Below are positions 4,912 through 16,973 of a stretch of 64,000 nucleotides of DNA, piece by piece. Position 1 is the first letter of the stretch, and every line of letters begins with the position of its first letter. The notes under the pieces are model-generated. The model was not told the DNA's origin and ran no database searches. It saw nothing but the letters and a program-made list of their open reading frames with translations. The stretch lies in NCBI GenBank assembly GCA_965218295.1, contig CBDCKN010000012.1, positions 64,001 through 128,000 of the forward strand, read 5' to 3'. The translations under genes and the position numbers were made by a program. Origin of the DNA: Longimicrobiales bacterium. GTDB lineage: Bacteria; Gemmatimonadota; Gemmatimonadetes; Longimicrobiales; Gaopeijiaceae.

Positions 4912-6168
4912 GTGAGTGAATTGAGGATCGCTCTCGTGCTGCTTGGTGGCCTGGCGATGGCCGGGTGTGATGCCCTCACGCCCAGCGCCCCGGCCGAGGA
5001 AGAGGTACTGGACGGGACCATCGAAGGGATGACCGGATCGCAGGTCGGGCAGCACCTGGCAGGCGACAAAGAGTTCGGTCGTGTCTTCGCCGAAGAGGAC
5101 GGCCTGGGCCCAATCTTCGTTGCATCGTCGTGCGAGCAGTGCCACGCCGGTGACGGGAAGGGCCACCCGGTCTTCAACCTCGTCCGTTTCGGGCGTCCCG
5201 GCCCGTCGGGCTTCGATCCGATGATCGAGTTCGGTGGTCCGCAGCTCCAGCATCGCTCGATCTCGGGCTATCCGGCGGAGGTCGTGCCCGTGGAGGCCGT
5301 GGGCGTATCGACGTTCAACCCACCTGCCGTCACCGGTCTCGGTTTCCTCGATGCGGTAGAGGACGCCACGTTGATCGCACTCGCCGATCCGGCGGACGCC
5401 GACAACGACGGGATCTCGGGTCGACTCCAGCTCCACGACCCGAGCGAGCTCATCGAAGAGGCGCTCGAGCTCGAGCGCCGTGGCTCGCCCGATCCGGACG
5501 CGCGTGGGACACTGGTCAACGGCCAGTACATCGGCCGCTTCGGGAAGAAGGCCCTCACCGTGAACCTGCTTCACCAGACGGTCGGGGCGTACCAGCAGGA
5601 CATGGGGGTGACCAGCGACCTGCTCCTCGAGGATCTCTTCAACCCCGCCGCCGGCAGCCGTGCATCCGACGAAGCACCCGACCCGGAAGTCTCCAGCGCC
5701 ACCGTCTCGAACGTCGTCTTCTACCTGAAGACGCTCCGCGCACCGTCACGGCGCGACGAAGGACATTCCGAGGTCTTCGCCGGCGAACAGCTCTTCTCCG
5801 CCATCGGCTGCGCGGCGTGCCACGTGCCTACGCTCCAAACGGGAGCCTCGGAGATCGAGGTTCTCGATCGGGCGCAGTTCCATCCGTACACCGATCTGCT
5901 GCTCCACGACATGGGCCCGGAGCTCGACGACGGGTACACGGAGGGCATCGCGCTCACGTCGGAGTGGCGGACGCCGCCGCTCTGGGGCATCGGCATCCAG
6001 GACGCGTTCCAGGGTGGCGAGACCTTCTTCCTGCACGACGGCCGGGCGCAGACGCTGGCGGAAGCGATTGGGCTGCACGGCGGTGAGGGAGCGGCGGCGC
6101 GGACCGGGTTCCAGGCCCTGTCGGCCGACGATCAGGCACGCTTGATCCGTTTCCTCGAATCGTTGTAG
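4912..6168 (+). CDS. Di-haem oxidoreductase family (DHOR) lipoprotein
   Basis: Lipobox LAMAGC; two CxxCH motifs (CEQCH, CAACH); DGISGR, GRFGKKA, PYTDLLLHDMG, EWRTPPLWG, FLHDGRA. Confidence 0.88.
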   Translation: MSELRIALVLLGGLAMAGCDALTPSAPAEEEVLDGTIEGMTGSQVGQHLAGDKEFGRVFAEEDGLGPIFVASSCEQCHAGDGKGHPVFNLVRFGRPGPSGFDPMIEFGGPQLQHRSISGYPAEVVPVEAVGVSTFNPPAVTGLGFLDAVEDATLIALADPADADNDGISGRLQLHDPSELIEEALELERRGSPDPDARGTLVNGQYIGRFGKKALTVNLLHQTVGAYQQDMGVTSDLLLEDLFNPAAGSRASDEAPDPEVSSATVSNVVFYLKTLRAPSRRDEGHSEVFAGEQLFSAIGCAACHVPTLQTGASEIEVLDRAQFHPYTDLLLHDMGPELDDGYTEGIALTSEWRTPPLWGIGIQDAFQGGETFFLHDGRAQTLAEAIGLHGGEGAAARTGFQALSADDQARLIRFLESL

Positions 6169-6179
6169 GGGGCGCGACG

Positions 6180-6614
6180 ATGAAGCGACGAGGTTTCGTC
6201 CAGCGACTGCCCGTTCTCACGGTCGGGCTGGCCGCGGGCGCCTCCGCCGCGATGATCGGCGGATGTGCCTCGGTGCCCTACCTGGTGCCCCAACTGACCC
6301 CGCGTGGTCTGTCGCTGCCGGCGTCCGAGCTGGGTCCGGAAGGAGAGGCCTTCGTGCAGGCTCCGGACATGGAACGACCCGTCTACGTCCGGCGACACGC
6401 GTCGGGTTCGTTGACCGCGGTGCTCGCCGCATGCACGCACCGCGGATGCCAGCCTGAACCGGTGGGCGATCGACTCGAATGTCCGTGCCACGGAAGCCAA
6501 TTCAGCTTCGAGGGCGAGGTGCTCGCCGGGCCGGCGGACCGACCCCTGACCCGCTACGAAATCGTAGAAACGGATGGGGAGATCGTGGTGCGACTCCCGG
6601 GAGGCGCACGATGA
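6180..6614 (+). CDS. Tat-exported Rieske [2Fe-2S] (lipo)protein
   Basis: Twin-arginine MKRRGF, possible lipobox IGGC, Rieske boxes CTHRGC and CPCHGSQF. Confidence 0.9.
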   Translation: MKRRGFVQRLPVLTVGLAAGASAAMIGGCASVPYLVPQLTPRGLSLPASELGPEGEAFVQAPDMERPVYVRRHASGSLTAVLAACTHRGCQPEPVGDRLECPCHGSQFSFEGEVLAGPADRPLTRYEIVETDGEIVVRLPGGAR

Positions 6615-7813
6615 CAGCCACGACGATCACCCGCATCCTGACCACGCTCGTGGCGATGACGGCGATCTCGGCAGGGGTCGAGCCGGTGTCAGCTCAGGTG
6701 GACTCGACGCTGGCGCAGGACGGCATTTACAACCGTCCGTTCATCGGCTCGATCTCTTCGACATCGATCGGAGGCTACGTCGAGGGCAACACGAACTACT
6801 TCGTCGAGGACGGGGTCTCGGAAGGCTTCTCGATGGAGCTCCGGCGATTCAACATCTTTCTCTTCTCGCAGGTATCGCAGCGGATCCGCTTCCTGTCAGA
6901 GCTGGAGTTCGAGCACGGCACGGAGGAGATCGCGCTCGAGACCGCGCTCGTCGACTTCCAGCTCGGACCGGGACTCGTGCTGCGCGGCGGCGTCATCCTC
7001 GCACCACTCGGCTACCTGAACCAGAACCACGACAGCCCGCAGTGGGACTTCGTCGAACGCCCGCTGGTCACGACCGACATCATCCCGTCGACGCTCTCCG
7101 AGGTCGGCTTCGGAGCGTACGGCAAGTTCGCAAGCGGTGAGCTCGTCTTCTCGTACGATGCGTACCTGACGAACGGCCTCGGCGCCGCGATTCTGACCAA
7201 CGAGACCGGCCGCACGGACATCCCATCCGGCAAGGACGAGGAGCTCTTCGGCGAGGACAACAACGGCTCCCCCGCCCTCTCGGGACGACTCGCTCTTCGG
7301 CATACGGGGCTCGGCGAGGTCGGCGTCTCGTACTACGGCGGCTACTACAACGACTTCCAGGTCGAGGGCGAGCAGGTCGACGAGAAGCGCTGGATGGGCA
7401 TCGCCGCGCTCGACTTCCGCGGCGACATCGGCCCCACCTCGATACGAGGAGAGGTCGTGTACGCATCCGTCGACGTGCCCGAGAGCCTCTCCGAAGTCCA
7501 CGGCGACACTCAGTGGGGTGCGTACCTGGACGTCCTGATGCCCGTATGGCGACCACGCTTCCTCGGCTACACGGATGCGGTCGTCACCGCCGGACTTCGA
7601 CTCGAGACGGTCGACTACAACGTCGGCACTTTCTCTTCCACGGGCTCGAAGATCGGCGACCAGGTGACGGGGATCGTTCCGTCGATCACCTTCCGGCCGA
7701 CCTCCGTTACGGTGTTCCGGGCGAACTACCGGTATCACTGGGCCACGGACTTCCAGGGCAACGACCCGGCGCGCATCGCAGGCTTCCAGCTCGGGTTCGC
7801 GACGTACTTCTGA
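6611..7813 (+). CDS. Outer-membrane beta-barrel (porin-like) protein
   Basis: Signal peptide ending VSA-Q, ELEFEHG motif, alternating beta strands, C-terminal FQLGFATYF; ATGA overlap with the Rieske gene. Confidence 0.75.
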   Translation: MTATTITRILTTLVAMTAISAGVEPVSAQVDSTLAQDGIYNRPFIGSISSTSIGGYVEGNTNYFVEDGVSEGFSMELRRFNIFLFSQVSQRIRFLSELEFEHGTEEIALETALVDFQLGPGLVLRGGVILAPLGYLNQNHDSPQWDFVERPLVTTDIIPSTLSEVGFGAYGKFASGELVFSYDAYLTNGLGAAILTNETGRTDIPSGKDEELFGEDNNGSPALSGRLALRHTGLGEVGVSYYGGYYNDFQVEGEQVDEKRWMGIAALDFRGDIGPTSIRGEVVYASVDVPESLSEVHGDTQWGAYLDVLMPVWRPRFLGYTDAVVTAGLRLETVDYNVGTFSSTGSKIGDQVTGIVPSITFRPTSVTVFRANYRYHWATDFQGNDPARIAGFQLGFATYF

Positions 7814-7869: not shown

Positions 7870-8240
7870 TGACCTGACCCCCTGAAACGAGACCAGGTGC
7901 AATGTTAGGATCGACCTGGTCTGAAGCTTTTCAGCGAGGAGGTCAGGATGGGAAGGAAGCGACACACTCCGGAGCAGATCATCACTGCACTGCGGGAGGC
8001 AGAGGTGGGTCTGGCCCGCGGCAAATCCGTGAAGCTGATCAGCCGGGAGCTGGGCATCACCGAGCAGACGTACTACCGGTGGAGGCGGGAGTACGGCGGG
8101 ATGAAGGTGAGCCAGGCACGGCGCCTGAAGGAGCTCGAGCGCGAGAACGGGCGCCTGAAGCGAGCAGTGGCGGACTTGACACTGGACAAGCTGATCCTGG
8201 AGGAAGCGGCCGAGGGAAACTTCTGAGCCCCGAGCGCCGC
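7870..8240 (+). mobile_element. Truncated IS3-family (IS407-group) element: IRL plus orfA
   Basis: End TGACCTGACCCCCTGAAACGAGACCAGG resembles 11037; orfA at 7948-8226; GGGAAAC slippery site at 8214-8220; orfB missing. Confidence 0.85.
7948..8226 (+). CDS. IS407-group OrfA
   Basis: KRHTPEQIITALREAE...EQTYYRWRREYGGM...LKRAVADLTLDK. Confidence 0.9.
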   Translation: MGRKRHTPEQIITALREAEVGLARGKSVKLISRELGITEQTYYRWRREYGGMKVSQARRLKELERENGRLKRAVADLTLDKLILEEAAEGNF

Positions 8241-8242
8241 GC

Positions 8243-9126
8243 ACCTGACGTTCGAGTTCAGAGCGGTGAAGGGAACCGAGGATGTGTTCGTGCCTCCCGA
8301 ATCATCTCAAGGGCCTTTTCCAGGCCTCGATGGGATGCGCTTTGACGAGTCCCAATGCGACACCGTGCCGGGCGATCATACGTCCATGGTCAAGCCCCTG
8401 AACGAGGGGGATGACTGCGTTGCATTCGTGATCGCACGGATACAGGGGGAGGCGGCTCTAACCGGGATCTGGTCGGCTTCCTGGGAGGCCATTGGGACAG
8501 GAGAGGCCCAAGCCACAGTCCAGAAGTACGGTGCGAATCCGGCCGATCTCGATAAGAAGACCCGTGTAGCCCTCGCGCTCGCCTACGATGTTCTGGGCGA
8601 TCGGGACAAGGCGATCGAAGTTATCAAGACGAGCGCGGAGGGCGACGCGGACGCGATGGGAACGCTCGCGGGTCGATACAAGCGCTCATGGCGGGACACC
8701 CGAAGTGAAACACAGGCCAAGCAGGCGCTGGACCTCTATCAGGCCGCATATGAAGTCGCCACGGAGGACGCCGCCGCGAAGATGGCCTACTACAACGGCG
8801 TCAACGTCGCCTACATGAAGCTCGCGGCTCTTGACGATGCCGGGGGCGCACGGGACATGGCGAACGACGTGCTGCACTGGCTCGCGGAGTCCCATGAGGA
8901 GGATCCTCCGTGGAAGGAGGCGACGGAAGGCGAGGCGTTGTTGTACGTTGGGAAGAAAGACGAGGCGATCCAGCGGTACCGTGCAGCTATCGAGTCGCGC
9001 CCTGCGGGTGAGCCACCTAAGCCCTGGATGCTCGCATCAATGTACCAGCAAGCGATCAGCATCGGCCGGTCCCTCAACGACCAGGACCTCATCGAAGCGA
9101 TCGAATAACTCTTCCGCGGAGAATAA
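8243..9126 (+). pseudogene. 5'-truncated alpha/beta-hydrolase fused to a TPR sensor (TPR-S / TRAF-binding DUF4071-like) domain
   Basis: Hydrolase tail AVKGTEDVFVPPESS...VPGDHTSMVKP, then helical DAMGTLAGRYKRSW, YYNGVNVAYM, WKEATEGEA. TAA at 9106-9108 is followed in frame by LFRGE*. Confidence 0.65.
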
Positions 9127-9159
9127 CGTGCAGCGTGAGGGGGGCGGGGACATACGATC

Positions 9160-9408
9160 ATGAGCAATCTACGAGAGTACCGGCGACGGGATGGTACGCC
9201 GGTGACCGCTACCCAGCTAAATCTCGACACAGACGGCTTCACGTACCGGAAGTGGGGCGGCGTTCAAACCGCGTCGCCTGGGGACTGGCTTGTGAACCGA
9301 GAAGACGAGGCGTATACGGTGGAACGCGAGGTCTTCGAACGCACCTACCGGATGATCAGTCCCGGCTTGTATGAAAAAGCGACCCCGGTATGGGCGCGCG
9401 TCGCGGAG
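9160..9408 (+). pseudogene. PGDYG-like protein, truncated by an IS end
   Basis: FTYRKWGGVQTASPGDWLV...YTVEREVFERTY...EKATPVWARVAE, then IS-derived PSLPTYVRHG. Confidence 0.6.
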
Positions 9409-9415
9409 CCCTCTC

Positions 9416-9478
9416 TGCCAACTTACGTGAGACACGGAGCAGCTAAGGAATTAGAGTAGGGCGAAGGCAGAGAAACCG
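9416..9478 (+). mobile_element. Isolated 63-bp left end of the IS3-family element
   Basis: Reverse complement of 3141-3203 (TGCCAACTTACGTGAGACACGGAGC...AGAAACCG). Confidence 0.9.
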
Positions 9479-9479
9479 G

Positions 9480-9653
9480 GTAGACTGGGAGATCAGAGAA
9501 TCGCGGCGGCTGAACAAAGGGGTTGTGGCCATGCACAAGGGCGATACCCCTCCAGCGACGCTCCCGAAGGCTGTGAGGGACGAGAACGTGAAGGTGGTTC
9601 CATGGTCCCAACTCGCTGACGCGATCGAACAAGCCTCGAAGAATCGGTCATAG
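9480..9653 (+). pseudogene. C-terminal fragment of a ThsB/MTH538-like TIR-domain protein
   Basis: Manual translation VDWEIRESRRLNKGVVAMHKGDTPPATLPKAVRDENVKVVPWSQLADAIEQASKNRS* retains the WEI catalytic-Glu motif. Not in the ORF track. Confidence 0.65.
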
Positions 9654-9802
9654 TAAAGCCAGGCCATTCGGTACGGTGCCTGTCAGATAACCCTGACCCG
9701 AGCTTCGGGCCCATGTCGCTTCCGCGAGTAGTGCTGCGATGCTCAATGCGGGTGGAGGACTCGTACTCGAAGAGCATCTCAGGTGGGGGGTCGAGCGGAG
9801 CC

Positions 9803-11036
9803 TGTCAACGCCAGTGAGACACTCTTGGGAATTAATTAGAGAGCAATCTCCTGTGTCGTGAGGGAGGGGGTTGGAGGATTGATCCAGACGGCCTCCGGGA
9901 GCGGTTTGGGCTTCGGCTCACCGGAGACGAAGCGGTCGGGATGAGCGGCCCAGGCCTCGCGTAGCACGGCCTCCCTGCCGGCGATGACCTGATCGGCGTG
10001 ACCGAAGTGGACCTGTTCGGGGGTCAGCATCGAGATGCCGCCATGGCGGTGCTCGGCATTGTACCAGCGGAAGAACGAGCGACAGAACATTTTGGCCTGG
10101 CCCTGATCCTCGAACCGTCCAGGAAACGAGGGATGGTACTTCAAGGTCTTGAACTGGGCCTCGGAGAACGGATTGTCATCCGACACCTGAGGTCGGCTCA
10201 GCGAGCGGGTCACCCCGAGATCGGCGAGGAGCTGAGCCGTGCATTGGCTCGTCATCGGAGCTCCTCGATCCGAGTGCAAGGTCAGGACCTGGGGCTGGAC
10301 GCCATGCTTCAGGCAACTCTGCTGGATCAGGCGCCCGGCCAAGGCCGAGCTCTCCCGATCCGCCACCATCCATCCCACGATGTAGCGGCTGAAGATGTCC
10401 ATGATGACGTAGAGGTAGAAGTAGCTCCACTTCCTCGGCCCCAGCAGCCGTGTGATATCCCAGGACCAGACCTGGCCCGGGCCCGTCGCCATCAACTCGG
10501 GTTTCTGGTATTCGGGATGACTCCGCTGCGCTCGGCGCTCTCGAACTGGCACTTGGGAGGCCAGAACGCGATACATCGTACGTTCGCTGCACAGGTAGAC
10601 GTCTTCGTCGAGCAGGGTCGCCACAACCTCGGCCGGGGACCGGTCCACGAATCGCTCCGAACACAGCGTGTCGAAGACCTTGTCTCGTTCCTTCTCGCTC
10701 AAGGCCCGGGCTGGGGTCGGGCGGGGCTGCTGATGCCCGGTCGATGGCCTCCGACGACGATAGAACGTGGCTCGGGCGACCCTGAGCGCATCGCACGTGG
10801 GCTTTACCCCTACGTACGTGGCCAGCGCCTCGGCCGCCTTCACGAGTTCGTCCCGTCCTCGAGGCTCAATCCCAGCAGCCCTGCAACTTTTCCCTGGACG
10901 TCGATGATCAGGCGCGCCTTCTCGAGTTCCTTCTCCAGGCGAGTGTTCTCGCGCTCCAGCTTGCGCACTTTCCCCTCCAGCGGATTCCGTTCGCTCGGCT
11001 TTCGACCTCGTCTCTTCGACAGCACTCTCAGCGACC
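9803..11036 (-). mobile_element. Second, diverged IS3-family copy; left part lost
   Basis: IRR TGTCAACGCCAGTGAGACAC at 9803; intact orfB 9836-10843; only the 3' part of orfA remains. Confidence 0.88.
9836..10843 (-). CDS. IS3-family transposase OrfB
   Basis: Close paralogue of 1684-2691 with the same DDE motifs. Confidence 0.9.
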   Translation of the reverse strand: MKAAEALATYVGVKPTCDALRVARATFYRRRRPSTGHQQPRPTPARALSEKERDKVFDTLCSERFVDRSPAEVVATLLDEDVYLCSERTMYRVLASQVPVRERRAQRSHPEYQKPELMATGPGQVWSWDITRLLGPRKWSYFYLYVIMDIFSRYIVGWMVADRESSALAGRLIQQSCLKHGVQPQVLTLHSDRGAPMTSQCTAQLLADLGVTRSLSRPQVSDDNPFSEAQFKTLKYHPSFPGRFEDQGQAKMFCRSFFRWYNAEHRHGGISMLTPEQVHFGHADQVIAGREAVLREAWAAHPDRFVSGEPKPKPLPEAVWINPPTPSLTTQEIAL

Positions 11037-11543
11037 TGACCTAGCCCCCTGAAACGAGACCAGGTCCAGTGTTAGAATCTGGGCGGGTCGAGACCGGGAG
11101 GAGGTCGAGATGGCAGCACGGAAGAACTACACGGCAGCGCAGATCATCAACGGGCTACGGCGGGCGGAAGTGGGGCTCGCCAACGGGAAGTCGCTGAAAG
11201 AGGTGATCCGGGATCTAGGGGTGAGCGAGCAGACGTACTACCGGTGGCGGAGGGAGTACGGGGGGATGAAGACGAGTCAGGCGAAGCGTCTGAAGGAGCT
11301 CGAGAAGGAGAACCATCGACTGAAGCGGGCGGTGGCCGATCTGACGGTGGACAAGATGATCCTGAAGGAAGCGTCAAAGGGAAACTTCTAAGCCCCGAGC
11401 GGCGGAGGCGCTGTGTGGTGCGGGTCCAGCAGCGGCTCGGGGTGAGCGAGAGGCGAGCGTGCGAGGTGTTGGGCCAGGCTCGATCGACACAACGGAGGAG
11501 TCGGAAGAGAGGGGCTGATGAAGCGGCGCTACGAGCGGACGTG

Positions 11544-13000
11544 GATGGTGTCCCGCTGACAGTTGAAGGTGGTGGCTCCGGAGAGTCTCCTTGTTAGCCT
11601 GCCTTTCTCATTTCGGCAACCGGTTCATGGTCGTCGAGGTGGGCCCTGAGCATCCAGAGCTGGTCGTAGCCGATGATCCTCCGGTAGCTCTTCTCGGTCT
11701 CCACGAACGAGGCCGCAGCCCAGCGCAAGGCCATCGCTCCGTTCTTCCAGTTGGTCACCCTGCGGGTCTTCTGTCTTACGCCCGAGTGGGTGCTGTCGAT
11801 CAGGTTGGTCGAGCCCAGGCACTTCCTCAGCCGCGGCGGGAGGCCGAGCCGGTTGATCGTGAACATCTCGCTGAGGCCTTCGCGTAGGCTGGCCGAGGCC
11901 GAGGGGTGGTCGCGCTCGAGCCATCGGGCGAGCTGCTCGAGCTTCTGCTCGCCCTGCTTCGCGTCCAGCTTCATCGCCGCCCGGAACGCCGCCTTCACCT
12001 GAGGATGCTGATCCTTCGGCAGATGACCCAGCACGTTGCGGAGCTTGTGGTTGCGGCAGCGCTGGATGGGGTGACGTTGGCCGAACACCTTCTCGATCGC
12101 CTTCCTGAGCGCTTTCGAGCCATCGATCACGAACAGCCGCCGCCTGCCCGGGTCCAGGCCGCGCTCGACCAGATCCTCTAGGAGCGCCCCGGTCACCTCG
12201 GCGTTCTCACTCGCTCCTTCCCTCACGCCCAGCACGTGCTTCTTTCCGTCTGAGTCCACGCCTACCGCAGCAAGCACGTGGTGCGAGCCCATCTGGATCC
12301 CGTCCAGGTAGATCACCAGGAGGTCCCACGCATCCAGCCGGCGCTCCATCAGCTCCTTCAGCACGCGCTCCGAGGCCTCGACCGTCTCACGGCTCACCGC
12401 CGACTTGCTCACCCCGACCGTGTCGGCCATCTCACCGATCACACGGCCGTACTTCCGCGTGCTCACCCCCGCCATCAGGACCTCGAGCATCCGATCCGCC
12501 ACGGCGCCCGGTCTCCGCATCGCTGCGTACGCCGGCACCTCGACCTCGCCACCCTCCCCGGCGCCCCGGCGCCTGAGCCGTGGCCGCTCCACACGCACCT
12601 TCCGGTCCGACAGGTAAACCACACCACCCTGCCGGCCATACCACACCGTGTCGTCTTCCGCTCGTGACCGACCTGCCTGCTTCACGCCTGCCACACCCTC
12701 GGCGCTCATCTCCAGCACCGCTTCGATCGTCGCTCGTCCCATCACCTGGATGACTTCGTCGATCGCGACCTCCGTCTGCTCCACGAGCTCAAGCATCGGA
12801 AGCAGAAACTGCCCCTCCCGCTTCAGGAACTCCCTGATCGCGCGCTTGTCCGCCCGATCCCTTACCTCGTACGTTCTCTTCATCGTGGTGGCTCCGTGTT
12901 GGGGTTTTTGCCTACCCGAGCCTATCGGCCCGGGACCCCCGGAGCCACCACTTTTCTTTCTCCCCTATCAGGAACCTTCAACTACGGTTGGGACAGCTTC
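11544..13000 (-). mobile_element. IS256-family element, copy 1 (1457 bp)
   Basis: IRs GATGGTGTCCCGCTGACAGTTGAAGGT / GAAGCTGTCCCAACCGTAGTTGAAGGT; 8-bp target duplication CGGACGTG at 11536-11543 and 13001-13008. Confidence 0.93.
11594..12883 (-). CDS. IS256-family transposase
   Basis: GVSTRK, YLDG, FVIDGSKAL, QRCRNHKLRN, STNLIDS motifs. Confidence 0.92.
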   Translation of the reverse strand: MKRTYEVRDRADKRAIREFLKREGQFLLPMLELVEQTEVAIDEVIQVMGRATIEAVLEMSAEGVAGVKQAGRSRAEDDTVWYGRQGGVVYLSDRKVRVERPRLRRRGAGEGGEVEVPAYAAMRRPGAVADRMLEVLMAGVSTRKYGRVIGEMADTVGVSKSAVSRETVEASERVLKELMERRLDAWDLLVIYLDGIQMGSHHVLAAVGVDSDGKKHVLGVREGASENAEVTGALLEDLVERGLDPGRRRLFVIDGSKALRKAIEKVFGQRHPIQRCRNHKLRNVLGHLPKDQHPQVKAAFRAAMKLDAKQGEQKLEQLARWLERDHPSASASLREGLSEMFTINRLGLPPRLRKCLGSTNLIDSTHSGVRQKTRRVTNWKNGAMALRWAAASFVETEKSYRRIIGYDQLWMLRAHLDDHEPVAEMRKAG

Positions 13001-13955
13001 CGGACGTGGTCAAGGTGGCGGGTCGGTTCGGTCGCTACGGGTACCGGATGGTTACAGGGATGTTGAGGGCGGAGGGCTGGGTGGTGAACCACAAGCGGGT
13101 GGAGCGGATCTGGAGAGAGGAGGGCCTGAAAGTGCCCAAGAAACAGCCCAAACGGGGCCGGCTCTGGTTTACGGACGGCTCATGCATCCGGCTTCGACCC
13201 TTGTACCGCCATCACGTCTGGGCGTATGACTTCGTGGCGGATCGGACGCACGACGGTCGGCCGCTGAAGATGCTGACGGTGTTGGATGAATACAGCCGGG
13301 AGTGTCTGGCGATCGTAGTGGCCCGAAGGCTCAGGGCGGACGATGTGTTGCAGACGCTCAGTGAGCTCTTTGTCGAGCATGGTCCACCGGCCAATCTCCG
13401 GTCCGACAACGGTCCGGAGTTCACGGCCAAGGTGGTTCGTGAGTGGCTCGAGCGGGTCGAGGTGAAGACGCTGTATATCGAGCCGGGTAGCCCGTGGGAG
13501 AATGGCTACAACGAAAGCTTCAACGGGACGCTGGGCGAAGAAGTCCTGAAGCGGGAGATCTTCTACTCGTTGGAGGAGGCGAAAGTGCTCATCGAACAGT
13601 GGCGGCGGGAGTACAACACCATCCGACCCCACAGCTCGCTCCGCTACCGACCACCGGCCCCCGAAGCGCTACGGCCCGATCCCTTCTTCTTGAATCTGCC
13701 CAAGCTTAACGGCCCTCACCCCAGGCTGCAGGAGGCCGTTGGACTAACACAGTAGGTGGTACCACTATTGGGGGCCGGTCAGTGACGAGCCTCTAGTTCG
13801 TCGTTTTCTCCTTTGCTTTAGCCGTCCTTCTCCGGAGGGTCGAGGAGCTCGGCTCCGCAGGAGGCGAGTGGAGCGCTTTGGAGAGCTCCGTATGGTGACG
13901 CATGCGGTAGCTGTTGCCGCGGATGTTGACGATGTGGCAGTGGTGCAGGAGCCGG

Positions 13956-15412
13956 GATGGTGTCCCGCTGACAGTTGAAGGTGGTGGCTCCGGAGAGTCT
14001 CCTTGTTAGCCTGCCTTTCTCATTTCGGCAACCGGTTCATGGTCGTCGAGGTGGGCCCTGAGCATCCAGAGCTGGTCGTAGCCGATGATCCTCCGGTAGC
14101 TCTTCTCGGTCTCCACGAACGAGGCCGCAGCCCAGCGCAAGGCCATCGCTCCGTTCTTCCAGTTGGTCACCCTGCGGGTCTTCTGTCTTACGCCCGAGTG
14201 GGTGCTGTCGATCAGGTTGGTCGAGCCCAGGCACTTCCTCAGCCGCGGCGGGAGGCCGAGCCGGTTGATCGTGAACATCTCGCTGAGGCCTTCGCGTAGG
14301 CTGGCCGAGGCCGAGGGGTGGTCGCGCTCGAGCCATCGGGCGAGCTGCTCGAGCTTCTGCTCGCCCTGCTTCGCGTCCAGCTTCATCGCCGCCCGGAACG
14401 CCGCCTTCACCTGAGGATGCTGATCCTTCGGCAGATGACCCAGCACGTTGCGGAGCTTGTGGTTGCGGCAGCGCTGGATGGGGTGACGTTGGCCGAACAC
14501 CTTCTCGATCGCCTTCCTGAGCGCTTTCGAGCCATCGATCACGAACAGCCGCCGCCTGCCCGGGTCCAGGCCGCGCTCGACCAGATCCTCTAGGAGCGCC
14601 CCGGTCACCTCGGCGTTCTCACTCGCTCCTTCCCTCACGCCCAGCACGTGCTTCTTTCCGTCTGAGTCCACGCCTACCGCAGCAAGCACGTGGTGCGAGC
14701 CCATCTGGATCCCGTCCAGGTAGATCACCAGGAGGTCCCACGCATCCAGCCGGCGCTCCATCAGCTCCTTCAGCACGCGCTCCGAGGCCTCGACCGTCTC
14801 ACGGCTCACCGCCGACTTGCTCACCCCGACCGTGTCGGCCATCTCACCGATCACACGGCCGTACTTCCGCGTGCTCACCCCCGCCATCAGGACCTCGAGC
14901 ATCCGATCCGCCACGGCGCCCGGTCTCCGCATCGCTGCGTACGCCGGCACCTCGACCTCGCCACCCTCCCCGGCGCCCCGGCGCCTGAGCCGTGGCCGCT
15001 CCACACGCACCTTCCGGTCCGACAGGTAAACCACACCACCCTGCCGGCCATACCACACCGTGTCGTCTTCCGCTCGTGACCGACCTGCCTGCTTCACGCC
15101 TGCCACACCCTCGGCGCTCATCTCCAGCACCGCTTCGATCGTCGCTCGTCCCATCACCTGGATGACTTCGTCGATCGCGACCTCCGTCTGCTCCACGAGC
15201 TCAAGCATCGGAAGCAGAAACTGCCCCTCCCGCTTCAGGAACTCCCTGATCGCGCGCTTGTCCGCCCGATCCCTTACCTCGTACGTTCTCTTCATCGTGG
15301 TGGCTCCGTGTTGGGGTTTTTGCCTACCCGAGCCTATCGGCCCGGGACCCCCGGAGCCACCACTTTTCTTTCTCCCCTATCAGGAACCTTCAACTACGGT
15401 TGGGACAGCTTC
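13956..15412 (-). mobile_element. IS256-family element, copy 2 (1457 bp)
   Basis: Same IRs and the same protein as copy 1; target duplication GGAGCCGG / GAAGCCGG (one mismatch). Confidence 0.93.
14006..15295 (-). CDS. IS256-family transposase
   Basis: Translation identical to 11594-12883. Confidence 0.92.
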   Translation of the reverse strand: MKRTYEVRDRADKRAIREFLKREGQFLLPMLELVEQTEVAIDEVIQVMGRATIEAVLEMSAEGVAGVKQAGRSRAEDDTVWYGRQGGVVYLSDRKVRVERPRLRRRGAGEGGEVEVPAYAAMRRPGAVADRMLEVLMAGVSTRKYGRVIGEMADTVGVSKSAVSRETVEASERVLKELMERRLDAWDLLVIYLDGIQMGSHHVLAAVGVDSDGKKHVLGVREGASENAEVTGALLEDLVERGLDPGRRRLFVIDGSKALRKAIEKVFGQRHPIQRCRNHKLRNVLGHLPKDQHPQVKAAFRAAMKLDAKQGEQKLEQLARWLERDHPSASASLREGLSEMFTINRLGLPPRLRKCLGSTNLIDSTHSGVRQKTRRVTNWKNGAMALRWAAASFVETEKSYRRIIGYDQLWMLRAHLDDHEPVAEMRKAG

Positions 15413-16096
15413 GAAGCCGGTCGATGAGCGCCGCAGCCATGACCTCGTCGCCCAGGATCTGGCCCCACTCCTCGAAGCCCTTATTGGACGTGAGCACAGT
15501 GGATGCGTGCTCGTAGCGCCGGTTGATCAGCTGGAAGAAGAACATCGCGCCGGTCTGGCTGACCGGTAGGTAGCCGATCTCGTCGACGACCAGGAGCGAA
15601 GGGTAGGTCAGGATCTTGAGGCGGTGTCCCAGCCGGCCCGCGGCTTTGGCTTCTTCCAGCGAGGTGATGAGGTCGGCCAGGGCGCCGTAGTAGACCCTGC
15701 GGCCACTCTGGGCTGCGGCGATGGCCAGGCTGATCGCCAGATGCGTTTTGCCGACGCCCGGAGGGCCGAGGAAGATCACGTTCTCCTTCCGCTCCAGGAA
15801 GCCGAGCTCGTGGAGACTGTCGATCTGCTCGCGCTTGATCGAGGGCTGGAAGGTGAAGTCGAAGTCCTCGAGCAACTTGATGGCCGGCAGCCGGCTGGAG
15901 CGCATGGCGACTTGGAGGCGCCGGTTGTTGCGCAGCGTGATCTGGGCACCGAGGAGTTGCTCGATCGCCTCTGAGGCCGTGACCCCTCCGCCATCGACTC
16001 CGGTGAGGACCTCGTCCAGTGCCTCCAGCGCACCGGGCATCTTGAGATCGGCGAGCTGGGCCCGGATCCGGTCGCGGCGTGAGCGAGCGCCGGCCT

Positions 16097-16625
16097 TCAT
16101 CGTCCACCTCCCGTCACCTGGGCGTAGGCCTCCAGCGACCGACGCTCTACGGCGATGCGGGGAAGGACAGCCTTGGCCCGCCTCTTCGCCTCGGGCGGCA
16201 AGACGAAGGACCGGTACGGGCGCGAGGCCAGGGGCCCCAACACGTCTTGCTCACGCTCGAGGCGATCGACGGGTCGCTCCTTCAGCGTGCCATGGACGCG
16301 GACGTTGGCCACGTGATCGAGCCAGTGGCGGGCCTGACGGTTGAGATCCTCGTCCGACGTGAAGGTCCGACCGTAGAAGAAGCTCGAACGGACGTAACTC
16401 ACCGGTCGCTCGACCTTGCCTTTGGTCCGGGCCCGGTAGGGCCTGCATGCCCGGATCCGGAAGCCATGATGGTTCGCGAAGCGCAGGAACTCGGTGTTCT
16501 CAGTGAGGCGACCTCCGTCGTCTCGCTCACCCCTGATGATGACGGCCTTCATCTGGTCGAACAGCAACTCTCGGGGCACGCCGCCGAAGAAGGCGAACGC
16601 CCCCTCCAGACCCTCGAAGACCTCC
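16097..16625 (-). pseudogene. istA: IS21-family transposase IstA, C-terminal half
   Basis: AFAFFGGVPRELLFDQMK, ACRPYRARTKGKVERPV, ANVRVHGT. Confidence 0.88.
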
Positions 16626-16973
16626 CCACCCGTAGCGCTGACGCAGATCCACGACGTGTTCCACGACACCTTCCGCTACGGCATGCGGGCAGTGGTGGGG
16701 CCGGTGAGAGCGGTCGTGGAGTCCCTCGAATCCCTCCGCGAGGAACCGTGTCCACCACTTGTATCCGGCGGCCCTGCTGATGCTGTAGCGCCTACAGGAC
16801 TCGGCGAAACCGAAGGTGCGTTGCTGAACTTCGAGGATGAAACGTACTCTTTGCTCGTACATGGTCGACTGGTTCCAGTCCATCGGGCTCTCCTTGTTGC
16901 AGAACCCTGGTTGATAGGAACCTGTCAACCATCAGTGTAGGCCATTGTGTAAACCATCAGGGGTAGGCTGTAC
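16626..16973 (-). mobile_element. IS481-family fragment (left end plus transposase N-terminus) fused to istA by deletion
   Basis: EQRVRFI...CRRYSISRAAGYKWWTRF...GLHDRSHRPH; repeated TGT(C/A)AACCATCAG subterminal motifs at 16923-16960. Confidence 0.75.

Follow-up and report, generated by a model that had tools for sequence, protein, structure and literature searches.

Three gene fragments lying head to tail among insertion sequences of a Longimicrobiales genome are, in what we consider the rather likely reading, the non-functional remnant of a Thoeris-type anti-phage locus in which a TIR signal would have activated an alpha/beta-hydrolase-TPR-S lipase effector, with a PGDYG-like protein as accessory, and which IS3 insertions and deletions have since broken up. 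The window (the whole stretch of 64,000 nucleotides that was analysed) comes from contig C12; the assembly has 3.57 Mb, 65% GC and many insertion sequences. All three genes are truncated, so that this genome lacks the intact defence genes that characterize Thoeris. The locus itself is inactive; its value is as a pointer to a large family of effectors with intact loci elsewhere, of which 479 representatives (50% clustering) were found at E ≤ 0.001 among 1.84 billion representatives searched.

The features of the scar are collected in Table 1. The initial annotation had placed the fragments between ends of insertion sequences, which is correct for the break at 9408 and incorrect for the left break, located inside orfB of an IS3-family remnant; the other genomic copies of this element run on into orfB. 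The genome holds the 70-bp left end that follows the PGDYG-like fragment 54 times; in 52 cases it continues into the transposase start, and the TIR tail follows the window copy alone. Further to the right, 7 kb of the window (9788-16960) consist solely of nested IS3, IS256 and IS21 copies, and about 10.9 kb of the window are also present elsewhere in the genome. The left neighbour of the scar (4912-7813) comprises an intact di-haem oxidoreductase (DHOR) gene, a Rieske protein gene and an unnamed outer-membrane-like gene, with a higher GC3 (0.83-0.87) than that of the fragments (0.71-0.74).

Table 1. Gene fragments and insertion-sequence parts of the scar (positions in the window).
Feature	Position	Strand	Basis
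Remnant of an IS3-family element with its left end, complete orfA (7948-8226) and 13 further bases	7870..8239	+	Pfam HTH_Tnp_1, NCBIfam IS3
alpha/beta-hydrolase-TPR-S gene, 3' 60%	8240..9108	+	Pfam TPR-S, homologue alignment
Tandem-repeat PGDYG-like gene, first 83 of ~128 codons, broken early in the second repeat	9160..9408	+	
Second IS3-family element, 70-bp left end without transposase	9409..9478	+	Genome copy comparison
ThsB TIR gene, 3' third, without start	9479..9653	+	164-aa glycine-tailed homologue
Second IS3-family element, another copy, its 5' portion removed by another IS3	9796..11036	-	

The first fragment encodes the tail of a hydrolase followed by a helical domain. As the initial annotation had supposed, the latter is a TPR-type sensor domain, matched by Pfam TPR-S above the cut-off (E 1.3e-14), and its motifs GRxKRxW, YxGIN (YxGxN) and WxxATxxEA have aligned counterparts in TRAF-binding-type TPR-S proteins and are common to proteins that we call 'ThsI-like' (hhalign 95.6%, E 1e-8). 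The fragment corresponds to residues 182-464 of an intact 469-aa homologue, P0012 (53% identity). An alignment of 60 intact homologues revealed a Ser-Asp-His triad with a GxSxG-type elbow, the Ser (AHSMGG) and the Asp being present in 60/60 and the His in 59/60 sequences. The Asp (GTEDVFVP) and His (PGDH) already pointed out as candidates in the window fall into these conserved columns; the catalytic Ser and the start of the gene are deleted. The TAA at 9106-9108 ends the window gene about six codons too early: beyond it, the frame reads LFRGE up to a natural stop at 9124-9126, and P0012 terminates in LFRG. Position 9106 is a C in the relatives present in runs X6 and X10, and the premature stop is common to runs X1-X3.

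The predicted model of P0012 (pLDDT 91.6) consists of an alpha/beta-hydrolase domain and then a helical domain. The first domain resembles lipases and phospholipases (6wpx: Z 20.5, rmsd 2.8 Å, 205 aligned residues), and no EDS1-family chain appeared among the structural matches listed, an absence that carries no weight. Members of the family are about 460 aa long, with 91 of the 150 matches listed between 440 and 510 aa. TPR-S is also fused to varied known effector types (patatin, trypsin-like, CHAT, caspase and cyclase). A caspase-hydrolase-TPR-S fusion also exists (P0005; an Atlas cluster of 131 members) and is commonest in Bacteroidota. Full-length hydrolase-TPR-S proteins were found neither in 40 relatives nor in 400 genomes of the phylum (four candidates scored per genome), so that no kin locus could be used for comparison. 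None occurred in the phage records or viral contigs searched, an initial genome scan using the hydrolase fragment alone gave no match, and PADLOC contains no model for either this family or the PGDYG-like protein.

The product of the second fragment aligns with residues 3-84 of the 151-aa protein P0007 at 80% identity. The initial annotation, which had read it from its PGDW motif as a PGDYG-like protein cut by an insertion sequence, holds in both respects: the break directly abuts the 70-bp left end, and in a contig of run X7 the frame continues beyond it. The fragment matches Pfam PGDYG (PF14083) weakly (E 0.015, 16 bits), and intact P0007 scores just above the cut-off of 27 (27.1 bits). Intact members are about 128 aa long, with two repeats and a confidently predicted fold (pLDDT 94.6). 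Neither Foldseek nor sequence searches returned a PDB match; the best VIA match, a tandem Tudor domain, is weak (Z 4.2, rmsd 3.1, 55 aligned residues). Tad1, Tad2, Acb2, Acb4, Sequestin and Lockin were absent from the PDB matches listed, Sequestin belonging to a Pfam family (PF21825) other than PGDYG. The Atlas neighbours are 34-54% PGDYG, and other matches include PHROG 419; viral as well as Atlas matches are either PGDYG proteins or without a name.

Searches of the literature returned no paper on the PGDYG domain and no described function. Neighbouring genes were counted within 3 kb in 80 of 156 PGDYG loci, several of which are related genomes. A defence-type neighbour is present in 43/80 and absent from 37/80; patatin genes occur in 21 (18 of them adjacent), TPR-S-type genes in 25 and TIR genes in 19, hydrolase-TPR-S in 2 and a Cap9 module in 1. 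The domain is moreover fused to patatin in P0009 and P0011. Judging by these neighbours and fusions, the PGDYG-like protein accompanies such effectors as an accessory and probably binds the signal. At two loci (L006, 6458-8387; L022, 6451-8393) the PGDYG-like gene overlaps the end of a nicotinate phosphoribosyltransferase gene, making a link to NAD possible.

The third fragment, a TIR domain that the initial annotation had recognized outside the list of open reading frames, was confirmed through its homologues. It corresponds to the last 57 codons of a ThsB gene and is 96% identical to residues 108-164 of the intact 164-aa protein P0162, which matches Pfam ThsB_TIR (PF08937) at E 5e-21; the same domain was found in all 32 homologues returned for the fragment. 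Taken alone, the fragment gave a weak PADLOC ThsB1 match (E 0.0022) and no Pfam match. The WVDWEI motif, holding the predicted catalytic Glu, is kept in the window. P0162 starts with MGGGGS, one residue off the M(G/S)G(G/S)GG motif; a Gly/Ser-rich start is found in 27 of the 32 homologues and the exact motif in 19. The region corresponding to this putative glycine-rich acceptor is deleted from the window gene.

In the glycine-tailed ThsB clade, Cap9 (QueC) is located directly upstream of the TIR gene in 12 of 13 distinct loci, mostly preceded by OGG and TGT genes, and the thirteenth locus begins at a contig edge. The glycine-tailed gene behind Cap9 in these loci is a TIR gene rather than a CD-NTase gene. 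In the TIR tree, the window tail and P0162 fall into an open fork with respect to the Cap9-adjacent TIRs. Since the window TIR belongs to this Cap9/Cap10/Cap11-associated clade, the deleted middle, where the initial annotation had suspected further genes without mentioning a Cap9 context, probably held Cap9, Cap10 and Cap11. The clade is rare, being present in 6 of about 1,480 other genomes searched, and one of these six (G1370) has a different ThsB without Cap9; plasmid TIR matches were examined for 3 of 54. The seven loci found through the TIR contain SLATT in six cases and a ThsI-like gene in three, and neither hydrolase-TPR-S nor PGDYG in any. Several modules show variants: in L003, L096, L100 and L181-L183 a TIR domain is added at the N-terminus of Cap10 (TGT), some modules include a PfkB kinase, and L187, L192 and L193 combine a Cap10 without TIR with a SLATT gene. 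A record from a viral collection (L191, 8082-9506) has a tandem array of ThsB, SLATT and another TIR.

The association of these parts was analysed in 79 loci from a metagenome scan, namely 48 with full-length hydrolase-TPR-S, 11 with partial or split forms and 20 with other hydrolases as controls; L027 and L058 were excluded from the hydrolase counts because they had been found through PGDYG. Counts rely on local profiles with a reach of 6 kb, the loci are phylogenetically non-independent and many contigs are short. As the initial annotation had expected, intact hydrolase homologues do co-occur with TIR genes: a TIR is present in 25/48 loci (fused in 6), and no marker of any kind was found in the 20 controls. 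Within the same reach, nine of the 48 loci have a match to the ThsB profile (one doubtful), four have Cap9 and five have a PGDYG-like gene. Among named neighbours, the commonest (18/48) is a second, TRAF-binding-type TPR-S protein, usually encoded directly downstream of the hydrolase and often with no ThsB in view. No TIR was detected in 23/48 loci and no marker in 13/48, including L085 and L095 with more than 7 kb on each side; of the 15 loci whose contigs extend 2.5 kb to either side, five have ThsB and two have nothing. Members of the glycine-tailed clade stand beside hydrolase-TPR-S in L094, L096, L100, L132 and the partial locus L133. A 190-aa gene without Pfam match, which we take to be SLOG-like, lies between ThsB and hydrolase-TPR-S in L094, L096, L097, L101, L132 and L133 and near the hydrolase in 11/48 loci. 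Both 'ThsI-like' and 'SLOG-like' are labels assigned in this analysis, and Pfam did not confirm either domain.

All five PGDYG genes located behind a hydrolase follow the TIR-fused form, and the window gene has no fused TIR. The hydrolase-TPR-S-TIR fusion directly followed by a PGDYG-like gene makes a compact two-gene unit in L110, L111, L120, L124, L136 and L058. The TIR-PGDYG link appears at one locus, L003, where the glycine-tailed clade occurs with patatin and PGDYG. The trio of hydrolase, PGDYG and stand-alone ThsB was found in none of the 48 hydrolase loci and none of the 80 PGDYG loci. A fixed three-gene arrangement of the operon originally proposed (TIR, hydrolase with sensor, PGDYG accessory) is not supported. 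Hydrolase genes are repeatedly linked to TIR genes and to PGDYG genes, and the parts behave as exchangeable modules of TIR islands.

For the ancestor of the window locus, we infer the original contiguity of the genes, the signal, its mode of activation and its target as follows. Cap9/Cap10 would have tagged the Gly-rich N-terminus of ThsB and kept hold of the enzyme, as suggested by the TIR clade; such tagging has been demonstrated for CD-NTases (10.1101/2025.04.06.647259) and is predicted for TIRs in the text of a recent preprint (10.64898/2025.12.03.692087). Upon infection, the TIR would produce a cyclic form of ADP-ribose from NAD+ as the signal. Canonical cADPR is the best guess because the usual partners of the clade (SLATT and TPR-bearing enzymes) are cADPR-responsive effector types. 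Binding of the signal to TPR-S in the upstream protein would turn on the Ser-Asp-His lipase/esterase domain of the same protein, which is predicted to damage membrane lipids and so to abort the infection. The PGDYG-like protein would act as an accessory, probably a signal-binding module, which is the weakest step of the scheme. A broader proposal, which we put forward tentatively and regard as possible rather than likely, is that hydrolase-TPR-S proteins are widespread cADPR-gated lipase effectors of TIR immunity, of EDS1-like design, within deazaguanylation-primed Thoeris, and that the adjacent PGDYG protein is a host signal-binding module also carried by phages.

The junctions themselves could in principle be assembly chimeras at a high-copy repeat, the genes being intact in the cell. 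Two observations favour this explanation, the 54 genomic copies of the IS end and the length of IS sequence on the short side of the joint-spanning contigs (24-30 letters, below our bridge threshold of 31), and yet it is largely refuted and in our estimate very improbable. The missing gene parts were not found anywhere in the 90.7%-complete genome by tblastn and family searches, and the locus is therefore dead, as had been claimed from the start. Nor did that genome yield Cap9/10/11, PfkB, SLATT, patatin, ThsI-like, ThsB or second TPR-S genes, the sole weak match to the QueC profile lying elsewhere, in a 517-aa frame. In addition, the junctions recur in independently assembled contigs: those at 8239 and 9478 in two studies (X1; X2/X3) and that at 9408 in two samples (X1, X4), contigs of run X1 being letter-identical to the window across the joints; the premature stop shared by X1-X3 points the same way. 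Seven of 22 runs were compared, at shares of at least 0.2, and there was no RNA run among those listed as carrying the locus. Runs X2 and X3, from one sample of the other study, lack the IS at 9796 and continue beyond 9408 with 914 and 1,308 letters of other DNA. In X6, a loose end before 8244 extends the frame of the hydrolase and suggests that the joint with IS3 includes an overlap of four bases. The adjacency of hydrolase and PGDYG is bridged in X6 and X10, from two studies, and according to these public contigs is native. In the runs compared, the PGDYG side and the TIR side never share a contig; in one contig of X10 the TIR tail is preceded by 2,664 letters of other DNA, and X6 and X7 have next to no cover of the tail, a gap that decides nothing. 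The differences in joints and insertions among runs indicate that decay was stepwise, the deletions at 8239 and 9478 presumably coming first and the cut at 9408 later. The strain series thus records the stepwise destruction of a defence island by IS activity.

With the junctions taken as real, the fragments may still derive from two separate defence-island modules merged by IS deletions, the hydrolase-PGDYG pair having served another, lost TIR and the ThsB a lost SLATT or ThsI-like effector. We regard this as a possible though rather doubtful origin. It would fit the loci found through the TIR (hydrolase in 0/7, SLATT in 6/7), the other DNA of at least 1.3 kb beyond 9408 in run X3, and loci L097, L101 and L132, where a different ThsB is located upstream of the hydrolase, on the side where the window has lost everything. 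However, four of the 48 hydrolase loci hold the glycine-tailed clade together with Cap9 despite the rarity of that clade, L003 connects the clade to patatin and PGDYG, and the three fragments are co-oriented, all of which speaks against two modules. A further explanation, unlikely in our view, accepts the TIR linkage and denies the killing role: the hydrolase-TPR-S protein would be a co-factor or regulator of a ThsI-like neighbour, or its TPR-S domain would bind a protein instead of a nucleotide. The frequency of the second TPR-S protein and its position, mostly directly downstream, agree with this, as does BcTpr, which is reported to form a complex with BcTir and to make the signal itself (10.1101/2023.05.26.542521). 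Against it, TPR-S is fused to interchangeable effector types, the triad is nearly invariant, and L094, L096, L097 and L101 combine ThsB and hydrolase without a ThsI-like gene, although L094 has just 337 bases of sequence downstream. The hydrolase-TPR-S family bears on three questions: whether TPR-S can serve as a portable cADPR sensor, whether a TIR is controlled by deazaguanylation, and which ligand the PGDYG domain binds.

The initial annotation recognized no named defence system here. This has to be amended, since Thoeris with Cap9/10/11, a TPR-bearing type VIII and a hydrolase type XI are all described in the text of the preprint of Yirmiya et al. (bioRxiv 10.64898/2025.12.03.692087), which lists 29 putative Thoeris types, phospholipases and hydrolases included; for the hydrolase-TPR-S family itself we found no test. 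According to that text, ThsB produces an ADPR-derived signal upon infection, as is established for Thoeris; SLATT and TPR-bearing effectors are activated by cADPR; type VIII (ThsB with ThsI, a 'CMP hydrolase' with TPR, responding to canonical cADPR) and type XI (ThsL, 'a hydrolase effector' whose signal is not known) were verified; and operons with Cap9/10/11 are a prediction (Fig. 6G, S10B). Further related literature includes PMC13329287, 10.1101/2025.07.12.664507, PMC13243611 and PMC9503650. ThsI and ThsL turned up in the preprint of Yirmiya et al. alone, and at title and abstract level for Thoeris with lipase, TPR or cADPR, we found no paper on a hydrolase-TPR-S fusion.

The window locus comes close to several of these systems. 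It shares with generic Thoeris a ThsB-type TIR (PF08937) with the predicted catalytic Glu, present as a fragment. The fragments of TIR and presumed effector are co-oriented with an IS scar between them, and at family level a match to ThsB lies near the effector in 9/48 loci. The TIR clade, with its glycine-rich start behind QueC, OGG and TGT homologues, resembles the predicted Thoeris operons with Cap9/10/11; on the other hand, neither an alpha/beta-hydrolase-TPR-S effector nor a PGDYG gene is mentioned for them in the preprint text, and the window lacks the Cap genes and the TIR N-terminus. A TIR-linked enzyme fused to TPR (PF20308 in the window) recalls type VIII, and ThsI itself would carry PF20308 to judge from the wording of the preprint. 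Nevertheless, the window enzyme is a Ser-Asp-His alpha/beta hydrolase and not a nucleotide hydrolase; having no CMP-hydrolase domain, it was rejected as a type VIII effector. Type XI likewise pairs a TIR with a hydrolase, the fold of which is not given in the preprint text, and ThsL may belong to the hydrolase-TPR-S family. In type IV CBASS, the N-terminal M(G/S)G(G/S)GG of the CD-NTase is the acceptor for conjugation of 7-deazaguanine by Cap9 (Wassarman et al., 10.1101/2025.04.06.647259), and 19 of the 32 homologues of the window TIR have exactly this motif. The signalling enzyme is, however, a TIR and not a CD-NTase, and type IV CBASS was rejected since the glycine-tailed gene encodes a TIR.

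At the level of domains, the helical part of the effector is PF20308 TPR-S and the small protein approaches PF14083 PGDYG. TPR-S (Pfam PF20308) was reportedly treated by Burroughs and Aravind in 2020, and the hydrolase fusion may already be listed there or in figures and tables of the Thoeris preprint. The TIR is part of a module for which a published prediction exists, and the effector is apparently a variant for which no test was found. The plant EDS1 family consists of lipase-like receptors of TIR signals. By analogy, the bacterial proteins would share with it a lipase-like alpha/beta-hydrolase joined to a helical domain and a position downstream of TIR enzymes; they differ in keeping a full catalytic triad and in using TPR-S, the homology shown being that of the common fold.
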